63,683 nucleotides of DNA from a virus (IMGVR_UViG_3300045988_129598), one strand, 5' to 3'; positions 10,221 to 62,945 are shown, counted from the stretch's first letter. Numbers and translations: made by a program. The notes: generated by a model from the letters alone, not told the origin.

Positions 10221-10225
10221 CGAGA

Positions 10226-10410: not shown

Positions 10411-10412
10411 CG

Positions 10413-10455
10413 AAAAACCCTTAAGTTTCTTAGAAAACTTGAGGGTTTTCTTTTT
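10413..10455 (+). terminator. terminator following the tRNA fragment (also usable for int on the minus strand)
   Basis: AAAACCCTTAAGTT...AACTTGAGGGTTTT then TTTTCTTTTT. The single non-Watson-Crick pair is U-G in plus sense. Confidence 0.65.
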
Positions 10456-10476
10456 ATACTTCGACAAGGTTAGACC

Positions 10477-12572: not shown

Positions 12573-13148
12573 TCAAATCTTTAATACGGTAGCAGTTGCC
12601 GTTGTGAGCGTTGCTTTTTTTAGACTCACTCTGGTTGCTTTGGAAGTATTGTAGAATCTCGGATTCGCGCTTGATGGTGCGTATACCACTTGCTTGCCAA
12701 CAGTCGTTACCGAGCTTCCCTCTTGGTACAAAACATCATCGTATTCGACCGCCGATACGGACTCTCCCCTTGGATAAACCGTTGTAGAGCTCGCCGTGTA
12801 GTATACCATTTTACGTGTTGCCGTTCGTTGATAAGTTCCACTGGATGAGGCTTCCAAATAGGTTTTTGTATCAGATGCGCCTTGCTTTGTAACACCGCTG
12901 GTGTTTCCTCTATAAAACGTATCGGGCCAATGTGCCACGCCTATCTTCTTCTCCGACGTTCCCGCCAAATAGACATTGCTGTTCGCTGCATTGTTTCCGT
13001 CAGAATCCGTAAGACTGGACGCAGTATAGTCCATCCAAACCTGGGACGGCGTGTATCCAGTCCCATTCATATCCGTGATGGACGATGCGACGTAATTGGT
13101 ATATAGGGTCGGCAGTTTATCGTAACCTTCGATTGCTCTATGTGCCAT
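12573..13148 (-). CDS. Ser/Thr/Tyr-rich repeat protein, unknown function
   Basis: 191-aa ORF with five Y-x-A-S-S-like repeats (NYVASSITD, DYTASSLTD, YLEASSSGT, YYTASSTTV, VYAPSSANP). Weak RBS. Confidence 0.55.
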   Translation of the reverse strand: MAHRAIEGYDKLPTLYTNYVASSITDMNGTGYTPSQVWMDYTASSLTDSDGNNAANSNVYLAGTSEKKIGVAHWPDTFYRGNTSGVTKQGASDTKTYLEASSSGTYQRTATRKMVYYTASSTTVYPRGESVSAVEYDDVLYQEGSSVTTVGKQVVYAPSSANPRFYNTSKATRVSLKKATLTTATATVLKI

Positions 13149-13406
13149 ACCTTTCGGTGTGGCGAGGACTATCTCACCAAGAAAATACTTCCATTTTGAA
13201 TTTTCTCAGGCCTGCCGCTTTGGCCGAAGCCTACTCCCCCGCCGGGGATAGTCTCTGAACATTACCCTGTTCGGGTCTTAGCTGCGCTGATTGTCCAATC
13301 CTTATCGATTTTTAGAGCATTCGCACTCAGGCTTCTTTCATCCTCATGCTGTAGCTGATAAGGCTCTAAGGAGTTCCCCGCAATTCAACAGGTCCGCGCC
13401 GAGAAT
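13149..13406 (-). other. 258-nt GC-rich structured non-coding region
   Basis: No ORF. Minus sense contains GGC-UUCG-GCC, CCCC-GGC-GGGG, ACCC-GAACA-GGGU, and long-range stems UUAGAGC/GCUCUAA and GAGACUAUC/GAUAGUCCUC. Confidence 0.4.
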
Positions 13407-15287
13407 TTAGTTGAAGGTGATTGTGTCTCCATAAGCTGGCGTGTATGTTGTTGGGACAAATGCCTCACTCGTTCGAAGAAACGTAACATACTTGTCACCT
13501 TCAAGATGAATCCCATAAGTTGACGCCTGCGTAAAATCGGTTACGACTTTGACTTGACCTTTAGTTACTGTGCTGCCGCCAAAGGTCATCGTTTTGACTT
13601 CCAAATATCCAATGTCCGCGCTGTTCGTGGTGAGAGCAGCCGTCTTGACGTAGCCGCCATCAAGCAATTTGATAATCGCGCTTGAAGTGACAAGACTATC
13701 CACATATGCTTTTTTAGCATAAAGATTTTCGATATTGGTGATCTCACTGTTGATGTTGGTGATGTCCGTATCAATATCGAGAACGCTTTTCTTCAAGCCG
13801 TCAATATCTTTAATCGACAGCTCGATGCTTCCGCGAACATCGTTAATTTCATCGGACACGTCGGCTCGAATGGAACTGTCCGTCTGAGAGATTTTAGTCT
13901 CCAGACCTTCTTTGGTGTTCTTGATCTCAGATGTTAGAGATCCTTCCATCTGTGTAATCGTCGAAGACAGCGTGTTCAATTTGTTATGAACGTTTTCGAT
14001 GATCTTGCCGTCGCCAACCGTTAAAGCGGCAGTGATCTGCCCAAGCGTGCCCCCGGGCAGACTTTCGAGATTGACCACCTTGTCCTTGATCGTAAGAACG
14101 CCGTTCACCTCGGTGATAAACTTCTCAAGCAAACTTGCCGCCGCAGCACCGCCTGCACCGCTTCTCTTTGCAGAGCTCGCTGTTGAGGATGTACTTGCAC
14201 TGCTGCCGGTGAGCGTTCGATCTTTCCGAAGCGTGATCTGGTTCGGATCAGTCAACGTATATTGGGTTTTGGAAGGGTCTTTGATGTTGACCTCGATTGC
14301 AGTGCAGATCAGAATCCTCTCGACACCATGAATGGGAGATTTTACTGTGATGGAATCGCCCAGATTAAATGGCCGAACCGTCGGATAGAATCGGTGCAGA
14401 TCGATTGCTTTGATGCTCAATTTAGGAGGAATGCCTTTATAGTTATCGGTCATGTACTTCTCGGCTTTTTCCATCAAAGTTCCCGCATCTGTAATGTCAC
14501 CGAAATCTTCAGTCTTTACAATTCGTCCATAGATAGCAATCGCTTCTGCATTTTCAAGATACTTCCCATTATGCGTGTACTTTTGGGAATCTCCGGCGGC
14601 TTCAATCGTAAGCTTGTCTTTTCCGATCGGAAGTAAAACTGTGAACAGATCTTCTCCTGTCTGCTCATTCATCAAGTCAATCAGGTTCTGTCCAAATTCG
14701 ATCGTTTGTGAAGATGTTGCATTGTAAGACTTCAAATAGTCGATGCATCGAATTCCATTTTCGTATCGAATTCGCAAATATCCGCCAAAGGAGTCGATCA
14801 AGTCAGACTGAATTGCGGAGAATGTTTCTCGATAATTGTCTTCGCCAAAGATATGTGACTCGGCCTTCTCGTCAATCTCAATACTGCCAACTGTGAACTT
14901 TTTCGTATCTTCGACTTGAGCATTGTGGGAATCAATGAGAAGCCGAAAATGCTCCTCGGCGGTCCTTGTCCCTTTTGACGGACCAAAAATGGAATCAACC
15001 AAATAGGCAAGTGTTCCTTCACAATAAACCTTGCGCTGCTTATACGTATCGGCATTATTTCTTAGAACACGACTTGAAAAAATCAGCTCTTCATCACGAT
15101 ATACGTCAATCCACGTCTTCATGGCTGGAAGCATATCGTAAAATAAATGTCTTGGAAGCATGGTAAATTCAACACTTCCGGCCTTGTTGACTTCCATTTT
15201 GATAATCGGACTGATCAGTTGATAATCGGGGTCGGCCCAATCGCTCGCGAAAATAAGCTCGTCGTTTGCATAGAGTCGATAATTCAT
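13407..15287 (-). CDS. tail-associated lysin/Tal-type distal tail protein
   Basis: 626 aa directly after Dit. N-terminus MNYRLYANDELIF...MEVNKAGSVEFTM is typical of siphovirus Tal/prophage-tail-endopeptidase N-domains. Coiled C-terminal part. Confidence 0.65.
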   Translation of the reverse strand: MNYRLYANDELIFASDWADPDYQLISPIIKMEVNKAGSVEFTMLPRHLFYDMLPAMKTWIDVYRDEELIFSSRVLRNNADTYKQRKVYCEGTLAYLVDSIFGPSKGTRTAEEHFRLLIDSHNAQVEDTKKFTVGSIEIDEKAESHIFGEDNYRETFSAIQSDLIDSFGGYLRIRYENGIRCIDYLKSYNATSSQTIEFGQNLIDLMNEQTGEDLFTVLLPIGKDKLTIEAAGDSQKYTHNGKYLENAEAIAIYGRIVKTEDFGDITDAGTLMEKAEKYMTDNYKGIPPKLSIKAIDLHRFYPTVRPFNLGDSITVKSPIHGVERILICTAIEVNIKDPSKTQYTLTDPNQITLRKDRTLTGSSASTSSTASSAKRSGAGGAAAASLLEKFITEVNGVLTIKDKVVNLESLPGGTLGQITAALTVGDGKIIENVHNKLNTLSSTITQMEGSLTSEIKNTKEGLETKISQTDSSIRADVSDEINDVRGSIELSIKDIDGLKKSVLDIDTDITNINSEITNIENLYAKKAYVDSLVTSSAIIKLLDGGYVKTAALTTNSADIGYLEVKTMTFGGSTVTKGQVKVVTDFTQASTYGIHLEGDKYVTFLRTSEAFVPTTYTPAYGDTITFN

Positions 15288-33070: not shown

Positions 33071-35881
33071 TTAAGATTTAGGTAAGTTATCGTTAAGAGC
33101 ACGAATAACAGTGCTTGCTGAGACACCTAAAAAACTGGCAATTTCATCATTTGTGTAGCCGTTTGCACTCAATCGTTTAGCTCTTGCAATTTTAGCAGCA
33201 GGCATGACCGAACTATTTCTCGGCATCGCATAGGATTTTACGACATCCATGTCTGCATTCTTTAGAATTTGGGTGAGTTTGTTGTGTGTAATTGCGCCAG
33301 CTTGAATGGCTTCCCATTCTTTTGGCGTAATCTTAATACGCGTTTTCTTTGCGCCTACTCGAAGACGCGCTTCTGTCAAAGATTGTCCTTTGATCTTCTT
33401 TACTTTATCGGCATCCTGCCTGTATTCAGGATTTGCATCCATCTTGGCTTTAAAGTTGTAATTGGCAAGAAGCTGGGCTTGACGTTCTAGTGGCGCGTTC
33501 TTTAGTGCTTCGTTGAGTTGGGCGTTAAGACTTGCTACTTCCTGAGCATAGGCTTGCTTTGCGGAGGGATTGTATTTTAAAGGCTTTACGCTCAAACTTT
33601 CTTTTCTAGCTTCATTTGCGAGTGCTTTCAATTTATTCGCATGTACTGCATACGCGCTTTCCATGACGGTTCCAGAAGATAAAGAAAAGGCGTCCTTCGT
33701 CTCGTACATCTTAGTGCTTTCGAGAGTCTTGGGCGTCTCTTTGTATATTGGTTTTCCATCTGCGTCGCGCTTGACTTCGCCAGTCTTTGTATTTTTAACT
33801 GGCTTGTTATACGTTTCTCCTGTTTCGGTGTAAAGCTTTTCGCCGGTTTCGGAATCGATGTAGATTTTCTTCTTCTTTCCGGTTTCTTTATCTTTTACAA
33901 CGATTCCGTCTTTGCGATCTGGCACTCGTTCTGTGCTACTCGCTTTTGAAAGTAATGTAGAAGCTCCCGATTTAGCTTTGCCTTGGTACTTAATCTTTAG
34001 CTCTGCGATGTCGTTATCTTTATACGACTGTTGATAATTCAGCTCGTGCTTTTTTGCATCAATAACGACCATTGAATGCCGAACAGCTCTAGCTAATTCA
34101 TCAGGAGTAGGGTTCTGAAGGCTCATATCTGTGATGAGATTGGTAATCATTCCCATCTCTCGTCCTTTTTCCTGATCTGTCATGACGTGCATTCCAGGAT
34201 ACTTAGGATAGGCTTCCTTAGGATCGAAATTTTTTAAGCCTTGCAGAGCAGGAGCGGTCTTCATTTTTCCGTCATTATTCGGAATGACCAGAACACTATC
34301 TCCATCAAAATCCGCGCCACTTAGCTTTTCTGCTGTCTTCGCGTTAATGACAACAGCGTCAATGGGATTGTTTCCTATGATCTTTCTGCCTGCACTCGAT
34401 TCGCTATTATTGACTACACATTCTGGAATCTCGAACCTTCCCGCATGTGGAAATCTGATTAAAACAACGCTCTCGCCATCATGAAAATTAGGCGCATAGA
34501 TCTCTTTTTCCGGAATGTCCGGAGATGGAAGAATGACCTGTGTTCTTTGTCTCGGTAAAGCGGCAGCCTTTAAGTGTACAGCGGCAGCATCACAATCGTC
34601 GGCAAAACTATCGAGCAACTGTTTCTTAACTGCGGGGTTCGTGGTAGCAAGAATATCTTTGAATTCTTCTGCCTTGGCATCATACGCGAGCCCAAGTTGT
34701 TTTTTAGCTAATGCGTATGTCTGTTTAGAAAGTACCTGCGACGAAAGGGATTTGCTCCATTCATTCCAGTTTCCTTCTTCATTGACAATATTAAGCGCCG
34801 ATAATTTCTCTTCTCCTGTTTTGGGATCGATATAATGCCGTTGAGCACGAACGAGCTGGTCATCCATTTTGATAGTTGCACCAAATGGATTTACCGGGTC
34901 CTTTTCCATCTTTTTGAAGACTTTTTCCGATTTATCTCTCGTTTTGTTTGTATTATAGATTATATCATAGCCATCGGGAATATCGTCTGAGTAGACAGCC
35001 ATGCCCTTCATATACTTATTTCCGTCAACAGCAATTCGAACCTGAGCATAATTAGCATTACCAAGAGAAATATCAGGCACTCCTCTGCGAAGCTCAATTA
35101 GGCCGTCTTTTTGGGCACCACCCGTTCCGTCATCATTTGTATAGTTCACATAGACTCGCTTGCTGTCAATAGAGACTGGCGGTTCAAGAGCTCTAGCTCT
35201 AGTACCATTATCCTCCATATAAAAATTTGTCGGGAGACTGATTTTTTCTTTGTTATCAACAAGTTCTTTATACCCGACATCATTTTTAGTTAGGACTTTG
35301 ATACTTGTTTTGTTATTCGTGCCCATCTGATCGACCTGAACGTATTGGATTTTATATCCTTGCTGCTCAAGTAGAGCGATGGCTGTTCGCATTCTTGTAG
35401 AGCTTACCGGCATAGCAAACTGATGCTCTGTTCCGCTGCCGACATCGATATATTTTTTCTCATCTACCGCAGCTTTAAGTTGGTCAGCCAGTGCGTTTGT
35501 CATGTTGTTCCGCTCTTTGAGATGCGGATCGAGCAATGCACGAACAGAACTTTCATTCTTACCCATGCGTTGGCCAATGGCGACATTGGAATATCCTTTT
35601 TCTTTCAACTTCCAAGCCATTGCCGATTCTTCTTTTCGGATTTCGGCTTTTGCAATGGATAGCTTGGCGCGAAGCTGACTGGTGGTCATTTCCATGCTAT
35701 CCGCGATCTGTTTCTCACTGAGTCCGTTTTTCCGCAACTTCGTAACATGCGAAACAAAGTTTCCGTTTCTCTGATAGGGATTCTCGCCAGATCCCCAAGG
35801 ATATCTTCCGCTATGTCGAGGGGTTCCGTAGTGTTCGAGCTCATCGGTTTCTTCTTGCCCAATAAGTTTTCGATCGTCCAT
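33071..35881 (-). CDS. two-barrel (YonO/RdRP-like) RNA polymerase candidate with N- and C-terminal HTH domains
   Basis: SGADFDGDSVLVIP (DFDGD codons 34298-34312) preceded by VVLIRFPHAGRFEIPECVV. Upstream YAQVRIAVDGNKYMKGMAVY (34994-35008 = KGMAV). HTH-like segments at both ends. ATG at 35881 follows GGAGGG. Confidence 0.6.
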   Translation of the reverse strand: MDDRKLIGQEETDELEHYGTPRHSGRYPWGSGENPYQRNGNFVSHVTKLRKNGLSEKQIADSMEMTTSQLRAKLSIAKAEIRKEESAMAWKLKEKGYSNVAIGQRMGKNESSVRALLDPHLKERNNMTNALADQLKAAVDEKKYIDVGSGTEHQFAMPVSSTRMRTAIALLEQQGYKIQYVQVDQMGTNNKTSIKVLTKNDVGYKELVDNKEKISLPTNFYMEDNGTRARALEPPVSIDSKRVYVNYTNDDGTGGAQKDGLIELRRGVPDISLGNANYAQVRIAVDGNKYMKGMAVYSDDIPDGYDIIYNTNKTRDKSEKVFKKMEKDPVNPFGATIKMDDQLVRAQRHYIDPKTGEEKLSALNIVNEEGNWNEWSKSLSSQVLSKQTYALAKKQLGLAYDAKAEEFKDILATTNPAVKKQLLDSFADDCDAAAVHLKAAALPRQRTQVILPSPDIPEKEIYAPNFHDGESVVLIRFPHAGRFEIPECVVNNSESSAGRKIIGNNPIDAVVINAKTAEKLSGADFDGDSVLVIPNNDGKMKTAPALQGLKNFDPKEAYPKYPGMHVMTDQEKGREMGMITNLITDMSLQNPTPDELARAVRHSMVVIDAKKHELNYQQSYKDNDIAELKIKYQGKAKSGASTLLSKASSTERVPDRKDGIVVKDKETGKKKKIYIDSETGEKLYTETGETYNKPVKNTKTGEVKRDADGKPIYKETPKTLESTKMYETKDAFSLSSGTVMESAYAVHANKLKALANEARKESLSVKPLKYNPSAKQAYAQEVASLNAQLNEALKNAPLERQAQLLANYNFKAKMDANPEYRQDADKVKKIKGQSLTEARLRVGAKKTRIKITPKEWEAIQAGAITHNKLTQILKNADMDVVKSYAMPRNSSVMPAAKIARAKRLSANGYTNDEIASFLGVSASTVIRALNDNLPKS

Positions 35882-35885
35882 AACT

Positions 35886-36533
35886 TTAACCCTCCATAAG
35901 TTGCTTCTGGACAAAATCGCTTGCGTATACGATCTGGTCCATTACTGATAGTATTCTGTCGGGCTCTGGTTGTAGAACCTGAACATCATTGTTTTGATAG
36001 ATCCGCAATTCGACTTGCGTATGCTCCGGGTGCGCATCTTCGATTTCGCCGTACTCCAAGAAGAACAGCGCAGCATATTGCTCAAGCTGCTTCATAGATA
36101 CAGGACTAAGACCTGTTTTGAGATCATGGATGCGAAGAATATCATTTTCAAACTTGATCGTATCTGCTGTTCCAAAAGCCACCGAACTGTAAGCCAGCAC
36201 AATTTCGGGGTCCATTCTTAGAGCAATGGCATCATTTACATAATTCATCAAATTCGGAAAAATATAATCGATGTCAATCGCTCGACGGGGAATCCGCTGA
36301 TCTCGAATTAAAGAAAACAACACGCCATTCTTTTCAGATTTAGTCAGCTTAATATGGGCTTGAATCCGATCCTTTGCATACAAATGGACGGCTGTTCCAA
36401 GTTCGGTTGCATAGTAGGCTTTCAGCTTGGCTGTCAGAATATCATTGAGATTATCTTTGTCTACCCAATGATAATTACTTGGGCTAATGATGGCATGTTT
36501 GCCTTCAATCGCCAAATGCTGCTTGTAATGCAC
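35886..36533 (-). CDS. PD-(D/E)xK-like nuclease (hypothetical)
   Basis: GTG at 36533 follows AGAGGAGG. The ILRIHDLKTG context resembles RecB/Cas4-type D-x-K cores. Assignment is weak. Confidence 0.45.
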   Translation of the reverse strand: MHYKQHLAIEGKHAIISPSNYHWVDKDNLNDILTAKLKAYYATELGTAVHLYAKDRIQAHIKLTKSEKNGVLFSLIRDQRIPRRAIDIDYIFPNLMNYVNDAIALRMDPEIVLAYSSVAFGTADTIKFENDILRIHDLKTGLSPVSMKQLEQYAALFFLEYGEIEDAHPEHTQVELRIYQNNDVQVLQPEPDRILSVMDQIVYASDFVQKQLMEG

Positions 36534-36801
36534 AAAGTACCTCCTCTTTGTTTTCGGGATAGATAAAACGAGCAAAGCTCAAATTATCCATTTTTGAAAC
36601 ATAATAGTCTTGGTTCGGTTGATGACCCGCTTTGGCATCTTTTTTGCATTCGAGAAGCGCCCACTTGTCGTTATAAAGAATAAGGAGATCGGGAAAGCCC
36701 TGAATATAAGTTGCATCAGTCTTCAGGACAACGCTTCCAGGGAACATGCTTTTCAGCTCTCGGATCAGACTGCTCTGAAACGCGCTCTCTTTGGGAGACA
36801 T
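36505..36801 (-). CDS. VRR-NUC-type nuclease
   Basis: ATG at 36801 follows AAAGGAGG. GFPDLLILYNDKWALLECKK gives the PD...E-x-K motif. The track's N-terminal extension covers the terminator. Confidence 0.6.
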   Translation of the reverse strand: MSPKESAFQSSLIRELKSMFPGSVVLKTDATYIQGFPDLLILYNDKWALLECKKDAKAGHQPNQDYYVSKMDNLSFARFIYPENKEEVLCALQAAFGD

Positions 36802-36817
36802 CCGATCTCCTCCTTTG

Positions 36818-36847
36818 CGAAAAATAAAAGGAGATGTTTCCATCTCC
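36818..36847 (-). terminator. intrinsic terminator inside the leader, upstream of the nuclease/packaging genes
   Basis: Minus strand GGAGATG-GAAA-CATCTCC followed by TTTTATTTTT, 17 nt before the RBS of gene 36505..36801. Confidence 0.65.
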
Positions 36848-36866
36848 AACGATAGAATATAAAAGT

Positions 36867-36910
36867 CGTATTCTATCTCCTCTATTATAGCATATGTTTT
36901 CTACGCGAGG
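36867..36910 (-). promoter_or_regulatory. extended promoter/leader element (copy of 10226..10269)
   Basis: Minus strand CCTCGCGTAGAAAACATATGC-TATAAT-AGAGGAGATAGAATACG, directly after the helicase stop. Followed by hairpin GATAGAATA/TATTCTATC (36851-36877). Confidence 0.55.
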
Positions 36911-46651: not shown

Positions 46652-47623
46652 TTAGTCTTCCATTAGATCAAAGATACTGCCTCTTACGTTAAAGTCCAGA
46701 ATAATCGAATCCTCCTGACCATTGATAAAACGATACGAGCCATCTTTGGTGAACAGACCGAAGTCCACATAGTAGTCAGCATCATCCTGATCCGCAGCGC
46801 CTTCAGCCGGAATATACCAGCCAACCACAGCGCCAGCTTTTGTTGCATCAAAACCAAGAGCCTCGTAGACTTCGTTCAGGAACAAATATCCGCCGTGCTC
46901 ATGGTTGCGCCTGGCAAGAAGCTTGTCGTTCATCTGATTCTGAACCTTTTTAAGGAACCACATATTATAGGAAGATTCTCCCTGCCAATAGTCGTTCCCC
47001 TTCTCAAATACCTTCGCGTACATTGAGTAGTCGTTAGGATTTCTGCCAATATCATTCCGTTTTACAACAGTAATTTCTTTGGCCTCGCCCTTCTCATCCG
47101 TAGCCGTCTCTTTGATCAGTTCCTCCGCTTTAATACCGTGCAGGAATCGCCAATCCGCTTCTTCACCGAGTTCTTCCCGGACGTTTCCGCGATAACCGCC
47201 AAACGCCTTCGTTGTCGCAGTCAAAGCAGCTGCCGTAGCCGCATAGCGCTGAGCTAACATGTGATGACCACCCAAGAAGCAGGCCATACTCGCAGCGTAC
47301 AATCCCGCAGCCGGAGCATATACCTTAGCCAAATCAACGCACATAATCGCCTTGGCTTTCAGAATGTCATTCCTCTTGTCGTCCTCGGTATAAGTCTGAC
47401 CGTCAACGACACAGTTATTGATCCTCGCCAGATGCGTTTCTTTCTTGGCGAAAATATCATCCACCTTCGTAGTGCTCTTCGCCGTTTCATATAGAGCTGC
47501 TGCACCAGTAACCATACCCGCACCCATCAGGATTTGTGGCATATGCTTATAAATAATAAGACCGGCTCGAGAACCGAACCGGCGAACAACCTTCATTCCA
47601 TTTTTGACAAAACTGAGATTCAT
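46652..47623 (-). CDS. two-TM paralogue family member 1
   Basis: ATG at 47623 follows TTGAAAGGAG. The N-terminal architecture is shared with genes 54922..55707 and 59654..60418. Confidence 0.6.
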   Translation of the reverse strand: MNLSFVKNGMKVVRRFGSRAGLIIYKHMPQILMGAGMVTGAAALYETAKSTTKVDDIFAKKETHLARINNCVVDGQTYTEDDKRNDILKAKAIMCVDLAKVYAPAAGLYAASMACFLGGHHMLAQRYAATAAALTATTKAFGGYRGNVREELGEEADWRFLHGIKAEELIKETATDEKGEAKEITVVKRNDIGRNPNDYSMYAKVFEKGNDYWQGESSYNMWFLKKVQNQMNDKLLARRNHEHGGYLFLNEVYEALGFDATKAGAVVGWYIPAEGAADQDDADYYVDFGLFTKDGSYRFINGQEDSIILDFNVRGSIFDLMED

Positions 47624-47644
47624 ATAGTGCTCTCCTTTCAAATA

Positions 47645-49694: not shown

Positions 49695-50315
49695 TTATTC
49701 CTCCACTTTAATATCGTCGAAGATAACCGGAATCGTCTCCTGAAGTTCTTCCAGCAGCGGAATCATCAGCGCTCGCATCTGAGGATGAGCGCCCTTAGCC
49801 GTTCTGAGTTTGAGAATATGTCGCCATTCAGCATAGTTCGTTGTCATCACCAGTTTTGTAGCGAGACATAAGGGGAGAACGCAGCGAGCATCTTCGGGTT
49901 TGAGGCCATTTGTGAGAAGCGCCTTATAATAACGTTCCGCCATGTTACAGGTACTCAGCCATAAGTTAGACCCGAACATGCAATCACTCACCCATTCTGG
50001 TTTCACGAAAGCTAATTCATTGCCGAACTTATTCTTGCTATAATTACAATATCTTGTAGACTCCTGAGCGAAGCTGCACAACCTGTGGCGTTCCAGCTCA
50101 TTCGCAATAGCTCGGTCCGTTGTGAATTCGACGCTCAAGGCAGAGTGCTCGAGCATAGCAGTGTGATCACGAGCTACCAGCAGATCTTTGATCAGTTTGT
50201 CACTTGATCCGCCGTCGGTGATTTTGTCTTCGCTGCGATAGCACGTTCGGGCAGCTTTTTCGATGACGTCACCGGGATTCCAGAGAATACGATAAGATTG
50301 CTCAATGATTTTCAT
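49695..50315 (-). CDS. thyX: FAD-dependent thymidylate synthase ThyX
   Basis: ThyX signature RHRLCSFAQESTRY (RHR-x7-S-x-R-Y). 206 aa. Confidence 0.9.
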   Translation of the reverse strand: MKIIEQSYRILWNPGDVIEKAARTCYRSEDKITDGGSSDKLIKDLLVARDHTAMLEHSALSVEFTTDRAIANELERHRLCSFAQESTRYCNYSKNKFGNELAFVKPEWVSDCMFGSNLWLSTCNMAERYYKALLTNGLKPEDARCVLPLCLATKLVMTTNYAEWRHILKLRTAKGAHPQMRALMIPLLEELQETIPVIFDDIKVEE

Positions 50316-53444: not shown

Positions 53445-53487
53445 AAGTTAAATCCTCCAATAAATTTTATTTAAGAGTTTCCTCTCT

Positions 53488-53512
53488 ACTATAAGCCTTG
53501 CAATTTTCGCGA
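53488..53512 (-). promoter_or_regulatory. TCGCG-N14-TATAGT motif copy
   Basis: Minus strand TCTCGCGAAAATTGCAAGGCT-TATAGT-AGAGAGG upstream of gene 53220..53444. Confidence 0.45.
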
Positions 53513-53513
53513 G

Positions 53514-53723: not shown

Positions 53724-53760
53724 AAATCATTTCTCCTTTCAAGTGTAGACTAATCCGTCT

Positions 53761-53785
53761 ATTATACGCTTTGCATTTTTTGCGA
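53761..53785 (-). promoter_or_regulatory. TCGCA-N14-TATAAT motif copy
   Basis: Minus strand CTTCGCAAAAAATGCAAAGCG-TATAAT-AGACGG overlaps the 3' end of gene 53762..54133. Confidence 0.45.
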
Positions 53786-54133
53786 AGTACACGAACTTGT
53801 AGGAACATATACCTCATCAAAGAAGCTCAACAGAATATTAAGAATCCCTTTTTTATAAGTTTCGAAATGCCGGGCAGCCAAGCCATCTGTTACACCGTCA
53901 TCTTTGCTGCTGAGGAATACAGCGATCGTATGCTCGTTATCGGCAATACCAATGTAGAAGAGGCTATTCGCCAGCAGAACATGGGAATCTCGACGAATCC
54001 ACTTATTCTGTTTATGAAAAAAGGGAAATCGTTCTTCGATCTCTCGAAACGCTTCTTCCAGAATATCAGGTTCATATTCAACGTACCATTGGGCAGCATA
54101 ATCGCCCGAAGCATAGTAATTACCTCGTCCCAT
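53762..54133 (-). CDS. hypothetical protein
   Basis: ATG at 54133 follows GGGAGG. The upstream part of the track ORF overlaps gene 54187..54381. Confidence 0.5.
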   Translation of the reverse strand: MGRGNYYASGDYAAQWYVEYEPDILEEAFREIEERFPFFHKQNKWIRRDSHVLLANSLFYIGIADNEHTIAVFLSSKDDGVTDGLAARHFETYKKGILNILLSFFDEVYVPTSSCTSQKMQSV

Positions 54134-54186: not shown

Positions 54187-54381
54187 TTAGAACATTGCTG
54201 GATAGAGCGCAATCATTCCCCACAGGATCACATTGATGAGCAGCGTCCCGATCAGTGCTCCGACATTGGCACCCATCCAGAAATAATTCTTTTCTTTTTG
54301 CGTGCAAGTCAGGTCGTTCTCATCAGCTTCCCTTTCCCTGTAGAAGAATTTGTAAAGTTTCTCCATCATGGCAAACACCAT
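54187..54381 (-). CDS. small membrane protein
   Basis: 64 aa with C-terminal TM pair GANVGALIGTLLINVILWGMIALY. Confidence 0.5.
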   Translation of the reverse strand: MVFAMMEKLYKFFYREREADENDLTCTQKEKNYFWMGANVGALIGTLLINVILWGMIALYPAMF

Positions 54382-54400
54382 CCTTTCATTATAGGTCGTG

Positions 54401-54925
54401 TTATTTCAGCGAGCCGTAAAGGACTAGGCTACCTGCTTCGAAGGATTTTCGCACATCAATAATGCGCTGATTTGAGCTACCACGCCACAAAAGCGAAATA
54501 TCTTTCTTTTCTTCGATAAACGGACCATCTACGAGGACGTCAATGTCCCTCAGTAGCATGTGCATACGACCGTGATCGCAATCATCCATTAGCTCTTCCC
54601 ATGTATACCCAGTCCAGCACCAAATATCCTGCGTAGGCGACTGTCTATGCTTTTTAATGTCATGCGCTATAACGCAAAGCATAGGTTCGTTTTCTTTCTC
54701 GAAAGGTTCTCCTCCAAGAAAGCTGAATCCGTCGTAATTTTGAGATTTCGAATAGGCTATGATGGCGTCCAGCATTCCATCGGTGACCGGCTGCCCATAC
54801 TCAAAATCCTGCGCTTCTGGGTTAAAACATCCGGGGCATCGCCTTCTGCACCCGCTGACCCAAATGCTCATCCGGATTCCCGGTCCATTAGCAACATCAT
54901 AGGGAACGATCTTTGCGATTTTCAT
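54401..54925 (-). CDS. nrdG: anaerobic ribonucleotide reductase activating protein
   Basis: N-terminus VANGPGIRMSIWVSGCRRRCPGCFN (radical-SAM Cys cluster of the NrdG type). 174 aa. Confidence 0.9.
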   Translation of the reverse strand: MKIAKIVPYDVANGPGIRMSIWVSGCRRRCPGCFNPEAQDFEYGQPVTDGMLDAIIAYSKSQNYDGFSFLGGEPFEKENEPMLCVIAHDIKKHRQSPTQDIWCWTGYTWEELMDDCDHGRMHMLLRDIDVLVDGPFIEEKKDISLLWRGSSNQRIIDVRKSFEAGSLVLYGSLK

Positions 54926-55707
54926 TCTACACCGCTTTCCGCCAGCTCAACCGGCATACCGTCTTTATACACGCCATCTGTATACCATCCATCGAGAAAT
55001 TCCGCACTCGGCTCAATATCATAGGTGATCTGGTAGAGACTCTTACCATTCACGTCAACATCCAGCAATTCATGCGAAATATCAATCCAACAGAATCCTT
55101 CCGTGACCGACCATCCGATCATTTGGGATTCCGGTGTTATCGGGATTCCCAAGAAATATAAGAATTCGCTTAAAGAGGCATATCCGCGCAATACAAAGTT
55201 TCGGTTAAAATGGTACTCGGCATCCATGATTTCCCGCTCATACCTCTCAAATGTCTGATGGGTCATGGGCTCGACAAACATAAATTTCCCATCTGGGCAA
55301 TCCAATGCTTGACGATGATACCCCGGATCATTCCTTGTAATCTCCGCCCGAACCTCTTTATCGAATTCTATGCCTTTTTTCTCAATGACTTTCGCTCGAT
55401 AATCGGAATATGTCTTAGTTGCTCCAGCGTACAGTGCAGCCATGGCAGCAGTCTGTTTCGCACTTATCGCATTACCACTCATAATGCATCCAATCGTCAC
55501 GCCAGCAGTAACAGCGGTCGGAATATAAGTCTTGGCGATGTCGAGTCCTGTTGGGTCAAGCCCGTCGGCATACATGTCCGCCACATCCATCGTTGCTTTT
55601 GCGCTGGCTACGGCTGTTCCGATCACACCGACGCTACCGAGCACACTCAAGATCGTAGGGGCATGCCGTTTGGTGAAGCGGACCAGATTCCAAAACGTTT
55701 TAGACAT
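54922..55707 (-). CDS. two-TM paralogue family member 2
   Basis: RBS TTGAAAGGAG. The N-terminal basic segment, TM1, A-x-x-A-T motif, TM2 and Y-R-x-K-V-I-E region are shared with 46652..47623 and 59654..60418. Confidence 0.6.
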   Translation of the reverse strand: MSKTFWNLVRFTKRHAPTILSVLGSVGVIGTAVASAKATMDVADMYADGLDPTGLDIAKTYIPTAVTAGVTIGCIMSGNAISAKQTAAMAALYAGATKTYSDYRAKVIEKKGIEFDKEVRAEITRNDPGYHRQALDCPDGKFMFVEPMTHQTFERYEREIMDAEYHFNRNFVLRGYASLSEFLYFLGIPITPESQMIGWSVTEGFCWIDISHELLDVDVNGKSLYQITYDIEPSAEFLDGWYTDGVYKDGMPVELAESGVE

Positions 55708-55774
55708 AGAAGCTCTCCTTTCAAAATGTGGCTTAAAATTACTCGCTTACGTCAAAATCACTATGAAGTTCTGG

Positions 55775-56320
55775 TCAATCCCAAACTGACGCCGACACAG
55801 CTTCAATTCTAGGCATTAGAATTCGATATCCACCAGGAACAGATTCATAGCTTGGACAGCCGTCACCGAAAGACTTCCAGCCCCACTTTCGGTCAGTGTA
55901 CTGACTGTGAACGCCAACGATACAATGGAAGTCATCGACTGTCACGTACCCATACCTCTGCATAGTATCCTTAAGTGCTTGGCAGACGCTCTCCGCTTCT
56001 TCTCGAGTATTGACGATGATTTCATTGGGCGTAACTCGTCTCGGACGCTCTTCGACGTCTCTCCGCGTATCATAATCGCACCTGCAATGATTCAATTTGG
56101 TATACGCGTCAAAATACATCGCCTGTGCATCTCCATCATAGGTAACCTCGAACATAAGTTCGTCCGGTGTCGGTGCGGCGAGAATAATTTTATGGTTTTG
56201 GAGCGTCTTGCATTGCCATATAACGAAAATATCCGTCCATTCGATAGGCTTTTGATGATACTCGGCAAGATAGTCAGCAACCTTTTTCTTCGCTTCAACC
56301 ATAAAATCGTAACTAGTCAT
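55775..56320 (-). CDS. hypothetical protein with shared ~90-aa C-terminal module
   Basis: ATG at 56320 follows AAAGGAGGG. The C-terminus is alignable with gene 51956..52606 (nucleotides 55801-56072 versus 51964-52235). Confidence 0.55.
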   Translation of the reverse strand: MTSYDFMVEAKKKVADYLAEYHQKPIEWTDIFVIWQCKTLQNHKIILAAPTPDELMFEVTYDGDAQAMYFDAYTKLNHCRCDYDTRRDVEERPRRVTPNEIIVNTREEAESVCQALKDTMQRYGYVTVDDFHCIVGVHSQYTDRKWGWKSFGDGCPSYESVPGGYRILMPRIEAVSASVWD

Positions 56321-56662
56321 GTTTTTATACCCTCCTTTTAAATATGGCTTTTTATAAATCACTTATGCATGCGATAACGCCGATGAGCCATGCGATGACG
56401 AATGAAGTAACGAATATTACAGGATCAAACTTCATGAATATGTCACCTCACAGTTTTAATTTTGGAATCGTTATTTTGAATAACAAGAACATTGTCGCCA
56501 TCAAAGTCTGATCCATAGTCCAGCGACCATTCCAAATATACAACCAGCAAGATATGCTACCATAACGACTACTTCCAAAGTAGTATCGTCAATCATCACT
56601 AAAAATCGCCTCCCAAATCGCCATACATATCCATGCTAAAACAAATGCCTCAATCCAGTTCA

Positions 56663-58804
56663 TTATAAGTGCATCACCCGATCTCTAATTTCAGCCGTTC
56701 GTCCCTGATTCCAGAACTGTGTACCGATATAACCACAGGTTCGTCTGGCGACATTCATCGTTTTCTGATCTCTGTTGCCGCACTTCGGGCACTCCCAAAT
56801 CAATTTTCCATCCTCCTCTACAATCTGGATTTCGCCATCGTACCCGCATTTCTGGCAATAGTCTGATTTCGTGTTAATTTCAGCATACATGATATGGTCA
56901 TACATATACTGAATCAGTCGAATAACAGCCTGAACATTTCCAATCAGATTTGGAACTTCGACATAGCTGATGGCCCCGCCCGGACTCATTTTCTGGAACC
57001 GACTTTCGAAATCAAGCTTTGTAAAAGCGTCAATCGGCTCGCGTACATTAACGTGATACGAATTGGTAATATAAGTGTGGTCGGTTACTTCTTTAATAAT
57101 GCCAAATCGTTTGCGCAAGCACTTAGCGAATTTGTACGTCGTGGACTCAAGCGGGGTTCCATACACACTATAGTCGATATGCTCCGCTTCGCGCCACTCC
57201 TTACATTTATCGTTCAATCGCCTCATGACAGCAATCGCAAATGATTCACCTCTGGGCTCAGTATGGCTAACATGCATGAAAGCCTGGCAACATTCGTACA
57301 ATCCTGCATATCCGAGCGAAATTGTCGAATATCCATTATAAAGAAGTTTGTCGATTGTTTCGCCATGCTTTAGTCTGGCCAGAGCACCGTGCTGCCAAAG
57401 GATCGGAGCAACATCAGACACTGTTCCCTTCAACCGCTCATGCCTGCATCGCAAAGCACGATGACAGAGCTCAAGTCGTTCGTCAAGGACGGTGAAGAAA
57501 TCTCTTTCTTCTTTAATAGCAGTGAGCGCAACATCTGGAAGATTGATCGTAACGACGCCTTGGTTGAAACGCCCATAGTATTTCGGCTTTCCGTTCTCAT
57601 CCTTATAAGGCGTGAGGAAGCTTCGGCAACCCATACACGGATAGCAGTCACCCTTCAGTTCCAGCATCAATTTCTCGGAAATATAATCTGGAACCATTCG
57701 TTTAGCCGTGCACTTGGCTGCCAATTTCGTCAGATAGAAATACGGAGAATCTTCATGGATGTTGTCTTCTTCAGTTACATAAAGAAGCTTCGGAAATGCA
57801 GGAGTGATCCAAACGCCGGACTCGTTCTTTACTCCCTGAATACGCTGATTCAGCATCTCCTCGATAAGCATAGCGAGGTCCTCTTTTTCTCGTGGATTCT
57901 CAGCTTCATTCAGATACATCATGACCGACAGGAAAGGTGCCTGCCCATTCGTTGTCATCAATGTAATGACTTGGTACTGAATAGTCTGAATACCCTTCTG
58001 AATTTCTTTTCGGAGACGACGTTCCACGATATTATCGATATACAACTCACCACCCGGAATGTCATAGTCGAGCATCTCCTGCATAACTTCTTTACGAATC
58101 GCCTGTCTCGAAACATCCACGAACGGTGCAAGGTGTGCAAGGCTGATCGTCTGACCGCCGTACTGACTTGAGGCTACCTGTGCGACGATCTGCATGGCAA
58201 TGTTGCAGGCTGTGGAGAAGCTATGTGGCTTATCGATCTTCACGCCGCTGATAACCGTCCCGTTTTGCAGCATATCCTTGAGATTCACGAGACAGCAGTT
58301 GTGCATATGCTGAGCAAAGTAGTCCTTGTCATGCACATGGATAATGCCCTGTCTATCCGCCTCCACAATGTCCTGAGGCAGAAAATATCTTTCTGTCAGA
58401 TCTTTAGAGACGTATCCGGCCATATAGTCTCTCTGAACACTGTTGATGACCGGATCTTTGTTGCTGTTTTCCTGAAGCGCTTCTTCGTTTGCCTGATCGA
58501 TCAACGACAGAATCTCAGCATCCGTGCTGTTTCCTTTACGGATTTTCTCTCGATCATAGCGATAACGAATATAATCTCTAGCTACGGTCGCATAGCCGTT
58601 TTCCATCAAGGCATCTTCAACCATGTCTTGAATTTCTTCGACATGGGGCGCTCGACCAAGCAACGCGCATTGATCCCCTACACTGTCTGTAATCTTGGCA
58701 ATATTATCGAATGGTATTCTGTCTTTGCCCGCCCGAGTAATTGCTCCAGCGATCTTTGTTGCGTCGAACTCGACTTCAGTTCCGTTTCGTTTGATGACTT
58801 TCAT
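56663..58804 (-). CDS. nrdD: anaerobic ribonucleoside-triphosphate reductase
   Basis: ATP-cone start MKVIKRNGTEVEFD. C-terminal Zn site CQKCG...CPKCG and glycyl-radical motif RRTCGYIG. 713 aa. Confidence 0.95.
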   Translation of the reverse strand: MKVIKRNGTEVEFDATKIAGAITRAGKDRIPFDNIAKITDSVGDQCALLGRAPHVEEIQDMVEDALMENGYATVARDYIRYRYDREKIRKGNSTDAEILSLIDQANEEALQENSNKDPVINSVQRDYMAGYVSKDLTERYFLPQDIVEADRQGIIHVHDKDYFAQHMHNCCLVNLKDMLQNGTVISGVKIDKPHSFSTACNIAMQIVAQVASSQYGGQTISLAHLAPFVDVSRQAIRKEVMQEMLDYDIPGGELYIDNIVERRLRKEIQKGIQTIQYQVITLMTTNGQAPFLSVMMYLNEAENPREKEDLAMLIEEMLNQRIQGVKNESGVWITPAFPKLLYVTEEDNIHEDSPYFYLTKLAAKCTAKRMVPDYISEKLMLELKGDCYPCMGCRSFLTPYKDENGKPKYYGRFNQGVVTINLPDVALTAIKEERDFFTVLDERLELCHRALRCRHERLKGTVSDVAPILWQHGALARLKHGETIDKLLYNGYSTISLGYAGLYECCQAFMHVSHTEPRGESFAIAVMRRLNDKCKEWREAEHIDYSVYGTPLESTTYKFAKCLRKRFGIIKEVTDHTYITNSYHVNVREPIDAFTKLDFESRFQKMSPGGAISYVEVPNLIGNVQAVIRLIQYMYDHIMYAEINTKSDYCQKCGYDGEIQIVEEDGKLIWECPKCGNRDQKTMNVARRTCGYIGTQFWNQGRTAEIRDRVMHL

Positions 58805-59653: not shown

Positions 59654-60418
59654 TCAAAGGACACTAAATCCACTTCGGGGCTTACTATCCAAATCGAAGT
59701 CCACGATTCCATAAGGAATACCATCCTCCCTCATGCCGGTCGTGATGTACGGTTCAACCCTTGTCGGGCTTCCCCAGCCTACTTCGTCGCCCATATTGTT
59801 CGGCGTCAATTTAGGATTGTCCAGCGCTTCATAGTAATCGTTCAGCGAAGCATAATAGCTTCCGAGGATTTTGTAGTTGACATCGTTAAACGCTTTCATA
59901 ATCCGCTCATAGGTAGACCAGAAATATCTTCCGCTGTACGCATCGAAGAACAAAGACTCTCCGTCATGACTTTCTTTGGTCATCGCGGCAAGCTGATTGT
60001 TTTGCCTTTCTGCCCGCTCTTTCGCCACTTCATCCCGAATCTCTCGTTCCTTCTTTTCGCCGATTGTCTCGATTACTTTCGAACGATAATCTTTTGCCAT
60101 GTTCTCAGAAAGGTTCAGGAGCGTTGTCAGCGCGGCAGTCCGCTTCTTTGAAATATCATTGGACTTAAAACCACAGGCAATGCTCAGAGCAGTTGCCGCT
60201 ACAGTCGGAGCATACTCCGGTACGACAGTCTTGATCATCTCGACCGTACCTTCCGGCTTCTTTTCATCTACCAGCCGAACCGCTTTGACCGTTGCTTCGC
60301 CGCAAAGCACAACAGCAGCGATAGTTCCAATCGAGCTTGCCACTGAAAGAATCGTGGAGGCGTGAGTCTTTCCGAAATGCCTGAGAACTTGAATACCAGT
60401 AGCGAACAAGTTTTTCAT
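59654..60418 (-). CDS. two-TM paralogue family member 3
   Basis: ATG at 60418 follows TTGAAAGGAG. Architecture shared with genes 46652..47623 and 54922..55707. Confidence 0.6.
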   Translation of the reverse strand: MKNLFATGIQVLRHFGKTHASTILSVASSIGTIAAVVLCGEATVKAVRLVDEKKPEGTVEMIKTVVPEYAPTVAATALSIACGFKSNDISKKRTAALTTLLNLSENMAKDYRSKVIETIGEKKEREIRDEVAKERAERQNNQLAAMTKESHDGESLFFDAYSGRYFWSTYERIMKAFNDVNYKILGSYYASLNDYYEALDNPKLTPNNMGDEVGWGSPTRVEPYITTGMREDGIPYGIVDFDLDSKPRSGFSVL

Positions 60419-60433
60419 AGAGATTTCTCCTTT

Positions 60434-60468
60434 CAAAAATAAAAAAAGAAAGAGCCGAAGCTCCCTCT
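60434..60468 (-). terminator. intrinsic terminator with UUCG loop
   Basis: Minus strand AGAGGGAGC-TTCG-GCTCTTTCT (two G-U pairs) followed by TTTTTTTATTTTT. Confidence 0.65.
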
Positions 60469-60698: not shown

Positions 60699-60742
60699 AG
60701 TCTTGTTCTCCTTTTAATATCATAATTGTGATTATGGTTTCT

Positions 60743-60767
60743 ATTATAACCCTTGTGTTTTCTGCGA
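60743..60767 (-). promoter_or_regulatory. TCGCA-N14-TATAAT motif copy
   Basis: Minus strand GCTCGCAGAAAACACAAGGGT-TATAAT-AGAAACC. Confidence 0.45.
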
Positions 60768-60768
60768 G

Positions 60769-61013: not shown

Positions 61014-61313
61014 TTACCACATTCCCGCCTGATGTCCGCAAAACGCAATCATAGCGATAAGTATTCCGATTCCCACAAACGCCATACCGGTATCATTATT
61101 CATCTTCTTTTCTTGGAACTTAATCTCCTGAATCTTAGCCTCATCAATGATCCGTTTCGTCTTACATGAGTTTTCATTGACATTCAGTGTAACGGTAACG
61201 TTGTTCTTCTTATCAACTGAGATTTTGGAGCCGCAGTAGGTACAGAAAAAGACGTCGGCGTTATTTTCAACCATGACACTCTTTTTACAGTTTGGACAGA
61301 TTATAGTTCTCAT
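61014..61313 (-). CDS. zinc-ribbon + C-terminal TM protein (tandem copy B)
   Basis: CPNCKK...CTYCGS, then NENSCKTKRIIDEAKIQEIKFQEKKMNNDTGMAFVGIGIL, which is shared with gene 61329..61637. Confidence 0.6.
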   Translation of the reverse strand: MRTIICPNCKKSVMVENNADVFFCTYCGSKISVDKKNNVTVTLNVNENSCKTKRIIDEAKIQEIKFQEKKMNNDTGMAFVGIGILIAMIAFCGHQAGMW

Positions 61314-61328: not shown

Positions 61329-61637
61329 TTATAACAGTCCCGCTTTATAGAAACTGAATAAAGCTATTGCGAACAATATTCCAATTCCCACAAACGCCAT
61401 ACCGGTATCATTATTCATCTTCTTTTCTTGGAACTTAATCTCCTGAATCTTAGCCTCATCGATGATCCGTTTCGTCTTACATGAGTTTTCATTGACGTTC
61501 ACAGTTACCGTGACTTTATTACTTTTATCTATGGAGATTTTGGAGCCGCAGTAGGTACAGAAAAACGAATCGATGTTTTCGTCCACGGTAAGAACGGCTC
61601 CACAGTTCGGGCAGGTTACGGATTTTGTTTTAGTCAT
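61329..61637 (-). CDS. zinc-ribbon + C-terminal TM protein (tandem copy A)
   Basis: ATG at 61637 follows GGAGGGGAA. About 117 nt (61384-61501) match 61069-61186 with 2 mismatches. Confidence 0.6.
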   Translation of the reverse strand: MTKTKSVTCPNCGAVLTVDENIDSFFCTYCGSKISIDKSNKVTVTVNVNENSCKTKRIIDEAKIQEIKFQEKKMNNDTGMAFVGIGILFAIALFSFYKAGLL

Positions 61638-61788
61638 ATCGTTCCCCTCCAAGTCGAAAAATAAAAAACCCTTGTATGCTTCTAACATACGTCTCCGGTA
61701 TTCCGGTGTCCTCCAATTAGACGATTATTGCGGGCTAACTTAGGACCCAATGCCTAAGCCTCCCACGGGTAAACTCCCAAAGTTCTCT

Positions 61789-61813
61789 ATTATAGCCCTT
61801 GCTTTTTTTGCGA
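61789..61813 (-). promoter_or_regulatory. TCGCA-N14-TATAAT motif copy
   Basis: Minus strand GCTCGCAAAAAAAGCAAGGGC-TATAAT-AGAGAAC, about 150 nt upstream of the ATG at 61637. Confidence 0.45.
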
Positions 61814-61814
61814 G

Positions 61815-61970: not shown

Positions 61971-62219
61971 TCATAACCTAAGAATTGAACGCCCGTTGAA
62001 TAGTCCTCTATAGGCTTCCATACACAGATTCAGCATGCGAGTCTTTTCACAATCTGGCATCGTACCAAATTTAATCGACTTTACATACTGATGTAACGCC
62101 TCGCAAATTTTACAATATGTATCCCGATCAATGCAATACAGAGGGTAGTCATCATGGTCATGAATTTCTCTATCTGTTAATACATAATATCTCTTTCCCA
62201 AAATTTCGATCTTTTTCAT
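61971..62219 (-). CDS. hypothetical protein
   Basis: ATG at 62219 follows TAGGAGGTG. 82 aa. Confidence 0.55.
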   Translation of the reverse strand: MKKIEILGKRYYVLTDREIHDHDDYPLYCIDRDTYCKICEALHQYVKSIKFGTMPDCEKTRMLNLCMEAYRGLFNGRSILRL

Positions 62220-62233
62220 AAAGATCACCTCCT

Positions 62234-62258
62234 ATAATAGAAGATGCTTTTCCTGCGA
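62234..62258 (-). promoter_or_regulatory. TCGCA-N14-TATTAT motif copy
   Basis: Minus strand TTTCGCAGGAAAAGCATCTTC-TATTAT-AGGAGG. The RBS abuts the hexamer. Confidence 0.4.
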
Positions 62259-62291
62259 AAAAATAAAAAGAAAGAGCCCTTGTTAGAGCTC
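62259..62291 (-). terminator. intrinsic terminator
   Basis: Minus strand GAGCTC-TAACAA-GGGCTC followed by TTTCTTTTTATTTTTT. Confidence 0.55.
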
Positions 62292-62560: not shown

Positions 62561-62586
62561 AATAGTTTCCTCCTAATAATATTTCT

Positions 62587-62611
62587 ATTATAGGAGCTGC
62601 AATTTTTGCGA
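62587..62611 (-). promoter_or_regulatory. TCGCA-N14-TATAAT motif copy
   Basis: Minus strand ATTCGCAAAAATTGCAGCTCC-TATAAT-AGAAA, 1 nt after the stop of gene 62613..62855. Confidence 0.45.
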
Positions 62612-62612
62612 A

Positions 62613-62889: not shown

Positions 62890-62918
62890 TTTACAAATAT
62901 TACGCGTTGTGCTATAAT
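62890..62918 (+). promoter_or_regulatory. canonical sigma-70-type promoter with extended -10
   Basis: TTTACA (62890-62895), 17-nt spacer ending in TGC, TATAAT (62913-62918). A weaker opposing TTGATT-N18-TAATAT (62926-62897, minus) overlaps it. Confidence 0.6.
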
Positions 62919-62945
62919 ATAATCAACAATTACGGGCCGTCCCCT

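Follow-up and report, generated by a model that had tools for sequence, protein, structure and literature searches.

The promoter-like element at positions 36,818 to 36,910 (minus strand) of the viral DNA IMGVR_UViG_3300045988_129598 belongs to a class of about 11 promoter copies, which was not seen in the first-pass annotation of this DNA. All coordinates refer to the window, i.e. the whole stretch of 63,683 nucleotides (nt) that was analyzed. With confidence a little short of even, we read the element as a late-class copy of a promoter for the phage's own RNA polymerase, gated by a promoter-proximal terminator. The candidate enzyme is a 947-amino acid (aa) protein at 33071-35914 (minus strand), which on the basis of motif, predicted fold and profiles is a YonO/RdRP-like two-barrel RNA polymerase with a C-terminal helix-turn-helix (HTH) resembling sigma region 4.

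On the minus strand the locus has the order helicase stop, promoter, 17-nt leader, hairpin with a stem of 9 base pairs (bp), terminator, ribosome-binding site (RBS) and nuclease gene. The promoter scores below refer to a 37-nt position weight matrix (PWM) built from the regions 5' of the nuclease gene in relatives. The features of copy 1, all on the minus strand, are:

36873-36909, minus strand: promoter copy 1, the 37-nt motif CTCGCG-TAGAAAACATATGC-TATAAT-AGAGGAGATAG; PWM score 36.3, shuffle maximum 12.8
36909-36904, minus strand: upstream element CTCGCG, read from the sequence
36892-36891, minus strand: TG of an extended -10, read from the sequence
36889-36884, minus strand: hexamer TATAAT, read from the sequence
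36867-36883, minus strand: conserved 17-nt leader start AGAGGAGATAGAATACG, the same in both late-class copies
36851-36877, minus strand: leader hairpin A, GATAGAATA / TATTCTATC, 9-bp stem and 9-nt loop; -6.3 kcal/mol, z -5.4
36820-36847, minus strand: intrinsic-terminator-like hairpin GGAGATG-GAAA-CATCTCC (36847-36830) plus T-run TTTTATTTTT (36829-36820); -10.3 kcal/mol, z -5.3
36799-36816, minus strand: RBS AAAGGAGGAG (36816-36807) and ATG (36801) of the gene for a 98-aa endonuclease (PHROG 93), which comes first in the late operon; read from the sequence

Minus-strand reading and folding confirmed the promoter-like element, leader hairpin and terminator that had been annotated here. The flanking genes are also as claimed, with a helicase upstream and the nuclease, polymerase and packaging series downstream. 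The upstream gene encodes a Helicase_C protein with its stop TAA at 36914-36912 (minus strand), and CTCGCGTAGAAAACATATGC-TATAAT begins 2 bases past this stop. A terminator scan of the window lists 36847-36830, and the whole leader folds with -19.2 kcal/mol (z -3.6 versus shuffles). In the 80% lineage of the window the terminator sequence is unchanged; hairpin A retains just 5 bp. The 17-nt leader contains, in both late-class copies, a -10-like hexamer TAGAAT 8 nt past the promoter hexamer.

The second late-class copy stands before the endolysin gene (ATG at 10163). A 44-mer is repeated at 10269-10226 (minus strand), with 41 of 44 nt equal to copy 1 and, as the first-pass annotation had stated, with its own terminator:

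10232-10268, minus strand: promoter copy 2, PWM score 28.2; hexamer 10248-10243, leader 10242-10226
10188-10221, minus strand: terminator 2, an 11-bp stem GAGAGACCATG-AAAG-CATGGTCTCTT (10221-10196) followed by ATTTTTAT; -16.3 kcal/mol, z -6.2

The window contains exactly two occurrences of the 30-nt core, compared to 0 expected (100 shuffles). The whole of leader 2 folds with -21.3 kcal/mol (z -5.0 versus shuffles), and contigs 086826 and 104678 carry a compensatory A-T to G-C change in terminator 2. Beyond the first 17 nt the leader is not kept between the two copies. Hairpin A is replaced at copy 2 by a different 5-bp pairing; hence it is not the essential feature. What the two copies share is the 17-nt sequence and not the 9-bp hairpin.

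About 11 unique copies of the motif with the consensus [CT]TCGC[GAT]-N14-TATAAT-AGA were found in the window, all of them on the minus strand, which carries almost all genes. Nine sites score 15.5-36.3, above the shuffle maximum of 12.8, and two are weaker (60768: 12.4; 553: 10.6). The match at 54-90 is the terminal-overlap duplicate of 63638-63674. In addition to the two late-class copies the class comprises:

63638-63674, minus strand: early-class copy, Shine-Dalgarno sequence (SD) directly after it; equals 54-90
62576-62612, minus strand: early-class copy, found with the PWM
62223-62259, minus strand: early-class copy, AGGAGG from the first base past the hexamer
61778-61814, minus strand: copy whose leader of about 130 nt is structured and closes with a T-run (61713-61664), found with the PWM
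60732-60768, minus strand: weak early-class candidate, below the shuffle maximum; counted for its clear motif, its co-orientation and its position just past a terminator and ahead of a gene
54377-54413, minus strand: early-class copy, found with the PWM
53750-53786, minus strand: early-class copy, found with the PWM
53477-53513, minus strand: early-class copy, found with the PWM
517-553, minus strand: weak candidate with hexamer TATGAT, below the shuffle maximum; counted only on co-orientation, RBS and gene start

Copies in the early region typically have a terminator on the 5' side and an RBS on the 3' side. In the window, the shared 17-nt leader and a compact terminator follow only the copies at 36909 and 10268. 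The idea of a constitutive promoter dedicated to late genes was not borne out, since the element is a member of a class that is spread over the genome and drives early genes as well. The copy at 61814 precedes two small proteins (61329-61688 and 61014-61313) with sub-threshold matches to TFIIB-type zinc ribbons; the leader at 61664-61814 matched nothing in Rfam up to an E-value of 1.

Relatives of the 947-aa protein provided 17 viral-contig loci (40-99% identity) and 80 loci out of 308 genome relatives, mostly from gut Clostridia. The motif is present 75-136 nt 5' of the nuclease gene in 77 of the 93 unique related loci, where the consensus is yTCGCGAAAAAAACAT-nCC-C-TWTWAT-GAAGAGAGAGG. The architecture is fixed: TCGCR, 6 nt, RCA, 5 nt, the hexamer T-W-T-W-A-T and a purine run. 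The spacing is specific; on the viral contigs the right spacing is found in at least 119 stretches, and insertion of one extra N reduces this to 8. None of the 41 loci with at least two copies has copies on both strands. Among 118 fragments fetched with the motif, 57 contain hallmark genes of the phage group and 42 contain the polymerase. The lytic Arthrobacter phage Hankly has nine copies, eight in the early region and one with a long leader before the VRR-Nuc/exonuclease/polymerase genes. The motif is thus carried along with this phage group across two host phyla.

The terminator is also a recurrent part of the late-class promoter. A hairpin (free energy <= -6 kcal/mol) with a direct T-run occurs in the leader of 60 of the 77 related loci, compared to 5.9 in shuffled leaders. 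In a set of 313 unique motif matches from all related loci, a hairpin plus T-run (<= -8 kcal/mol) follows the promoter in 79/116 cases before the nuclease gene and in 6/6 before an endolysin gene, versus 39/190 before other genes. The stem starts at a median of 1 nt past the hexamer (interquartile range 0-3), and in most relatives the purine run past the hexamer is the 5' arm of the terminator stem. Many relatives have an additional terminator 5' of the promoter, which means that the leader terminator does not simply mark where the helicase operon stops; a role of the hairpin solely as terminator of the upstream operon was ruled out for this reason.

Several genomes (the window, its 80% lineage and L078) contain two complete late-type modules, and the late leaders co-vary within a genome: AGAGGAGATAGAATA occurs twice in the window lineage and AGAGGGATAGAATA twice in contigs 104678 and 086826. 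Between lineages the leader start differs (AGAGGAGATAG versus AGAGGGATAG). The sequence GATAGAATA is invariant in six sequences from four lineages although its pairing partner changes. RNAalifold found no consensus structure for 43 leaders of the TTTTAT type, the loop lengths of which are too variable to align; the structural support for the related leaders comes from per-sequence folding with shuffles and from individual compensatory changes. In relatives the same promoter also directly drives tRNA or tRNA-like units (L164 3577-3690; L202 2836-2913; L137 about 10490-10600). In these units a purine tract on the 5' side pairs with a pyrimidine tract on the 3' side, and a T-run follows; the start site is not fixed by these tRNA units.

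The properties of the promoter bear on the question of which polymerase reads it. The upstream element is conserved at a fixed distance of 14 nt from the hexamer. No -35 element is present at the promoter, and a consensus sigma-70 scan does not list the site. We ruled out the upstream element as a sigma-70 -35 box, given its spacing of 14 nt and the lack of a conserved hexamer at 17 nt. Positions 1, 3, 5 and 6 of the -10-like hexamer are conserved and position 2 is variable. TTTTAT is present in 44 of 122 late copies, and TTTTAT, TTTAAT or CTTTAT replaces TATAAT in roughly a quarter of the 313 homologous promoters. Position 2 corresponds to A(-11), which is critical for sigma-70. The start codon is located 15-19 nt past the hexamer in 27 of 123 early-class promoters, and in the listed early-class cases the SD GAAAGGAG begins about 4-5 nt past the hexamer. 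The window copies at 62259, 63674 and 54413 show the same arrangement (62217-62239, 63630-63654 and 54369-54393). More generally, many early-class promoters have the SD 0-5 nt and the start codon 14-19 nt past the hexamer. A start site 7 nt past the hexamer would cut off the SD, which suggests a start within about 3 nt of the hexamer. The beginning of the stem in relatives coincides with this predicted start site and so supports the proposed reading. At the level of sequence, the upstream spacing, the variable position 2 and the close RBS argue against a sigma-70 promoter.

In the early region, sites resembling sigma-70 promoters are no more frequent than expected (37 versus 38.2). The sole strong canonical promoter of the sigma-70 type (TTTACA-17-TGcTATAAT, 11/12) is on the plus strand at 62890-62918, where it overlaps the predicted start of the only long plus-strand open reading frame (ORF; 62907-63389, 160 aa, no family). 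This plus-strand unit, 62890-63421, ends at a bidirectional terminator and could be the unit that the host polymerase transcribes in lysogens.

The 947-aa protein contains the DxDGD metal-binding loop SGADFDGD (residues 532-539), which is invariant in sets of 10 and of 27 sequences, and matches Sigma70_r4_2 and HTH_23 at residues 908-942. An AlphaFold2 (AF2) model built from database homologues (mean predicted local distance difference test score 79) was compared with known structures in Foldseek. The best match was plant RDR2 (7eu1_M; E 7e-6, probability 1.0), followed by Rpb1 and beta' chains with weak E-values. The Pfam RdRP match has an E-value of just 0.008; PHROG 4291 matches over the full length, and a PDB sequence search with the protein gave no match. 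On the strength of motif and model the protein is a YonO/RdRP-like two-barrel polymerase, for which RNA synthesis itself is predicted. Published work already counts it, as a YonO-like protein with HTH domains at either terminus, among the signature genes of these phages and contains no promoter analysis (10.1101/842583; PMC2919709). For YonO itself, DNA-dependent RNA synthesis has been demonstrated, and its promoter was stated to be unknown (PMC5467207); we found no later description of a promoter for a YonO-type polymerase in the searchable literature. The motif HYGTPRHSGRYPWGSGENPYQR in the N-terminal residues 1-46 (35777-35914, minus strand), a segment that is disordered in the AF2 model, is invariant in the polymerase family and might be a docking or packaging signal.

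These data suggest the following mechanism. The single-chain two-barrel polymerase of the phage most likely recognizes the promoter via its fused HTH domains, and transcription probably begins within about 3 nt of the hexamer. In the early class the transcript would enter an RBS at once. At the two late copies it would make the conserved 17-nt leader and then meet the intrinsic terminator, at which transcript release is predicted. The module at copy 1 would be a promoter-proximal attenuator or insulator that gates an operon of about 26 kb (nuclease, polymerase, packaging, head and tail), and the second module would separately gate the lysis cassette beyond attP. Terminator-obeying polymerases, whether they arrive from upstream or initiate here, would halt after about 55-65 nt, and late and lysis expression would need a terminator-resistant state. 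This state would most plausibly come from the phage polymerase or, alternatively, from a factor that reads the shared leader. Antitermination and a terminator-insensitive polymerase had both been put forward in the first-pass annotation; with the 947-aa polymerase in the operon the latter fits the evidence best, and membership in the Q-type systems is unsupported. Because the polymerase gene is behind terminator 1, the enzyme would exert positive feedback on its own operon if it passes the terminator.

A more general proposal, which we consider possible but rather doubtful, is that TCGCR-N6-RCA-N5-TWTWAT-RRR is the promoter of the YonO-like two-barrel polymerases with a fused sigma-4-like HTH, a family that counts at least 8000 members among the phages of Bacillota and Actinomycetota. 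Recognition would then be sigma-free, and the start would lie directly past the hexamer; since early genes share the promoter, the polymerase might even be delivered with the virion. The late modules would produce self-closing hairpin RNAs as an early-to-late switch. Such a switch could consist in autoregulatory attenuation of the polymerase operon or in a decision between primer synthesis and transcription.

Several observations weigh against the proposed role of the phage polymerase. Both window copies are perfect Gram-positive extended -10 sequences of the form TRTGnTATAAT (TATGCTATAAT), which means that host sigma-A could use them. The initiating polymerase, the start site and the passage of the terminator are all points that we infer from sequence. 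The early region is full of terminator-then-promoter pairs, which suggests that the early transcriber obeys terminators; this is awkward for a polymerase that is simply terminator-blind, if it reads the early promoters too. A report on the terminator sensitivity of YonO-type enzymes is not contained in PMC5467207. The polymerase gene itself is located 3' of terminator 1, so that leak, read-through by the host enzyme or delivery with the virion must be assumed to set the system going. The association between motif and polymerase could reflect shared descent and not recognition. Finally, the PWM has purine-rich columns, which bias its matches to SD-like sequences past the hexamer.

Host sigma-A combined with antitermination in the manner of lambda Q or of put is an explanation that we regard as unlikely. 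Here transcription would start at TGnTATAAT and pause at TAGAAT; read-through would follow once the paused enzyme is modified, be it by a phage factor or the leader RNA itself. The perfect extended -10 in both window copies speaks for this, as does the finding that TGn is present at 20% of the late copies versus 5-7% of the other copies. A -10-like hexamer (at least 5/6 identity to TATAAT) is located 5-16 nt past the promoter hexamer in 34% of late leaders versus 5.6% of shuffles, and in 14% versus 11% for other promoters, but these counts are not corrected for sequence relatedness. Such a mechanism also agrees with the two adjacent hairpins of each leader and with the invariance of GATAGAATA in four lineages despite the changed pairing partner, and the two small zinc-ribbon proteins, whose matches are sub-threshold, are possible factors. 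However, about 70 proteins scanned with Pfam, and some also with PHROGs, contained no sigma factor, Q, N or recognizable repressor; likewise no put homologue was found, and the gene upstream is a helicase. The absence of a -35 element and the TTTTAT hexamers lacking A at position 2 in the homologous late promoters are difficult to reconcile with sigma-A. The same class drives early genes with an SD 4-5 nt past the hexamer, which a start 7 nt downstream would truncate, and the conserved upstream element is left without a role.

The terminator may also be a fixed, unregulated attenuator or insulator with a 5' stabilizer, an explanation to which we likewise assign a low probability. A leaky terminator would set the level of late expression and stop read-through from the replication genes, with no switch and no special property of the polymerase. 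Intra-operon terminators are indeed common (60469-60446; in the late operon 28185-28141 and 24330-24300), the helicase stop 2 nt from the promoter leaves no room for a separate upstream terminator, and a hairpin with T-run is also found at some promoters before other genes. Still, in the many relatives with an extra upstream terminator the leader terminator is no substitute for one; the strong preference for the nuclease/polymerase operon and the endolysin suggests a class-specific role, and this model does not account for a 17-nt leader that evolves in concert at the two copies. We consider it improbable that the hairpin RNA of 55-65 nt is itself the product. It could be a regulatory small RNA (sRNA), or it could serve as a replication primer or R-loop at the replication/late boundary, by analogy with T7 origin promoters or the mitochondrial LSP-CSBII/TEFM switch. 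In favor of this, the stem in relatives extends approximately from the first transcribed nucleotide to the U-run, and the transcript in its entirety would fold into a single hairpin; the purine-rich 5' tract is expected to make a stable RNA:DNA hybrid; tRNA-like units ending in a T-run are driven by this promoter in relatives; and copy 1 is located directly past the replication genes. Copy 2, on the other hand, precedes the endolysin far from the replication genes, the leaders differ past their first 17 nt, and the phage has its own D5-type primase/helicase. The only Rfam match of the element was non-significant, with a C. difficile sRNA (RF03531) that is located within a helicase gene; this identity was rejected at 19.3 bits versus a gathering score of 65.

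The element had been described as similar to lambda PR'-tR'. A promoter and a close terminator ahead of the lysis, packaging, head and tail series, as in PR'-qut-tR', are indeed found here, in duplicate and in 60 of the 77 relatives, and the first transcribed stretch contains, as in lambda, a -10-like hexamer, here a candidate pause element. In Hankly, a relative with a linear genome, late transcription would likewise have to cross the genome ends at the cos junction, because no promoter of the motif type is present ahead of its structural genes. In contrast to lambda, the phage has no Q gene or Q-family protein and no -35 or Q-binding element (QBE) architecture. Its promoter is one of a multi-copy class that also serves early genes, the terminator is 36-65 nt from the promoter instead of 194 nt, and the phage polymerase gene is located inside the gated operon. 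The lambda analogy is therefore one of layout, not of membership.

With the class II and III promoters of T7/SP6 and the early promoters of the N4 and crAss-like virion polymerases the motif shares many co-oriented copies of about 30 nt, an AT-rich block that abuts a purine-rich start (compare TATA abutting GGGAGA in T7), and inheritance along with the polymerase gene. The enzyme here is, however, of the two-barrel YonO/RdRP type with a fused HTH and not T7-like, many members of the motif retain a sigma-70-like TATAAT, and recognition is predicted. YonO of the Bacillus prophage SPbeta resembles the present enzyme as a single-chain two-barrel polymerase with a DxDGD motif whose gene adjoins the late operon, and its mapped start site is 5' of yonK and of an unannotated non-coding RNA (PMC5467207). 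The relationship is distant, though, and the YonO gene stands outside the operon that it transcribes. In the yonN-yonK gap of SPbeta (L242 9152-10834) we found no match to the motif (best PWM score -10.3). The put RNA of HK022 also has two stem-loops immediately past the promoter and ahead of terminators; the second stem-loop here is itself the terminator, the first differs between copies, and there is no similarity in sequence or in Rfam. Mitochondrial LSP-CSBII/TEFM, in which a single-chain polymerase stops early or, when made processive, yields genome-length transcripts, is an analogy only, since the polymerase is unrelated and termination there involves a G-quadruplex instead of a hairpin plus U-run.

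The ends of the window overlap exactly over 99 bp (1-99 = 63585-63683), which identifies it as the assembly of a circular phage genome of 63,584 bp. Downstream of copy 1 are genes for the endonuclease (PHROG 93), an exonuclease (DUF2800 / PHROG 3953) and the 947-aa polymerase-like protein, followed by an HNH protein, a connector and TerL. The gene 3' of copy 2 encodes an endolysin with NlpC/P60 and PG_binding domains (10163-9432, minus strand). A tyrosine integrase gene (10477-11655) and a 3' tRNA-like fragment separate the tail genes from this copy. Integration would sever the lysis cassette from the late operon in the prophage, which offers a simple reason for a second late-type promoter. 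The tRNA-like fragment (GGTCGCCGGTTCGAATCCGGCC, plus strand) adjoins the integrase gene in the region of about 10360-10476, which is probably the attP core and contains a bidirectional terminator at 10418-10445; an ARAGORN search of the window found no complete tRNA.

The sole Rfam match in the window at gathering thresholds is a group I intron (RF00028, 58 bits) at 13145-13468 (minus strand), away from the element and between the ORFs 13407-15287 and 12573-13148 in the tail-distal late operon. Three DUF6353 paralogues (59654-60436, 54922-55707 and 46652-47641, minus strand) are present; the first has no promoter of its own and is directly preceded by the compact terminator 60469-60446 (minus strand). 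The early region also encodes an anaerobic ribonucleotide reductase NrdD with its activase, and ThyX (54401-58804 and 49695-50315, minus strand). These genes suggest a strictly anaerobic host, which agrees with the relatives from gut Clostridia. A megablast search with the 6-kb region against the INPHARED phages gave no match.

The locus gives a family-wide candidate promoter with a fixed spacing, a predicted start site and a natural pair of promoter classes, one with a promoter-proximal terminator and one lacking it. A few templates could thus suffice to test how a minimal two-barrel polymerase that has no sigma factor finds its promoter and handles a terminator. The motif could also be a compact orthogonal set of promoter and terminator for engineering. 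If host sigma-A reads the module, it would represent a Q-independent system of late antitermination in Gram-positive phages. For the phage family as a whole, the motif is a simple annotation aid for transcription units in thousands of prophages of gut Clostridia and in actinobacteriophages.

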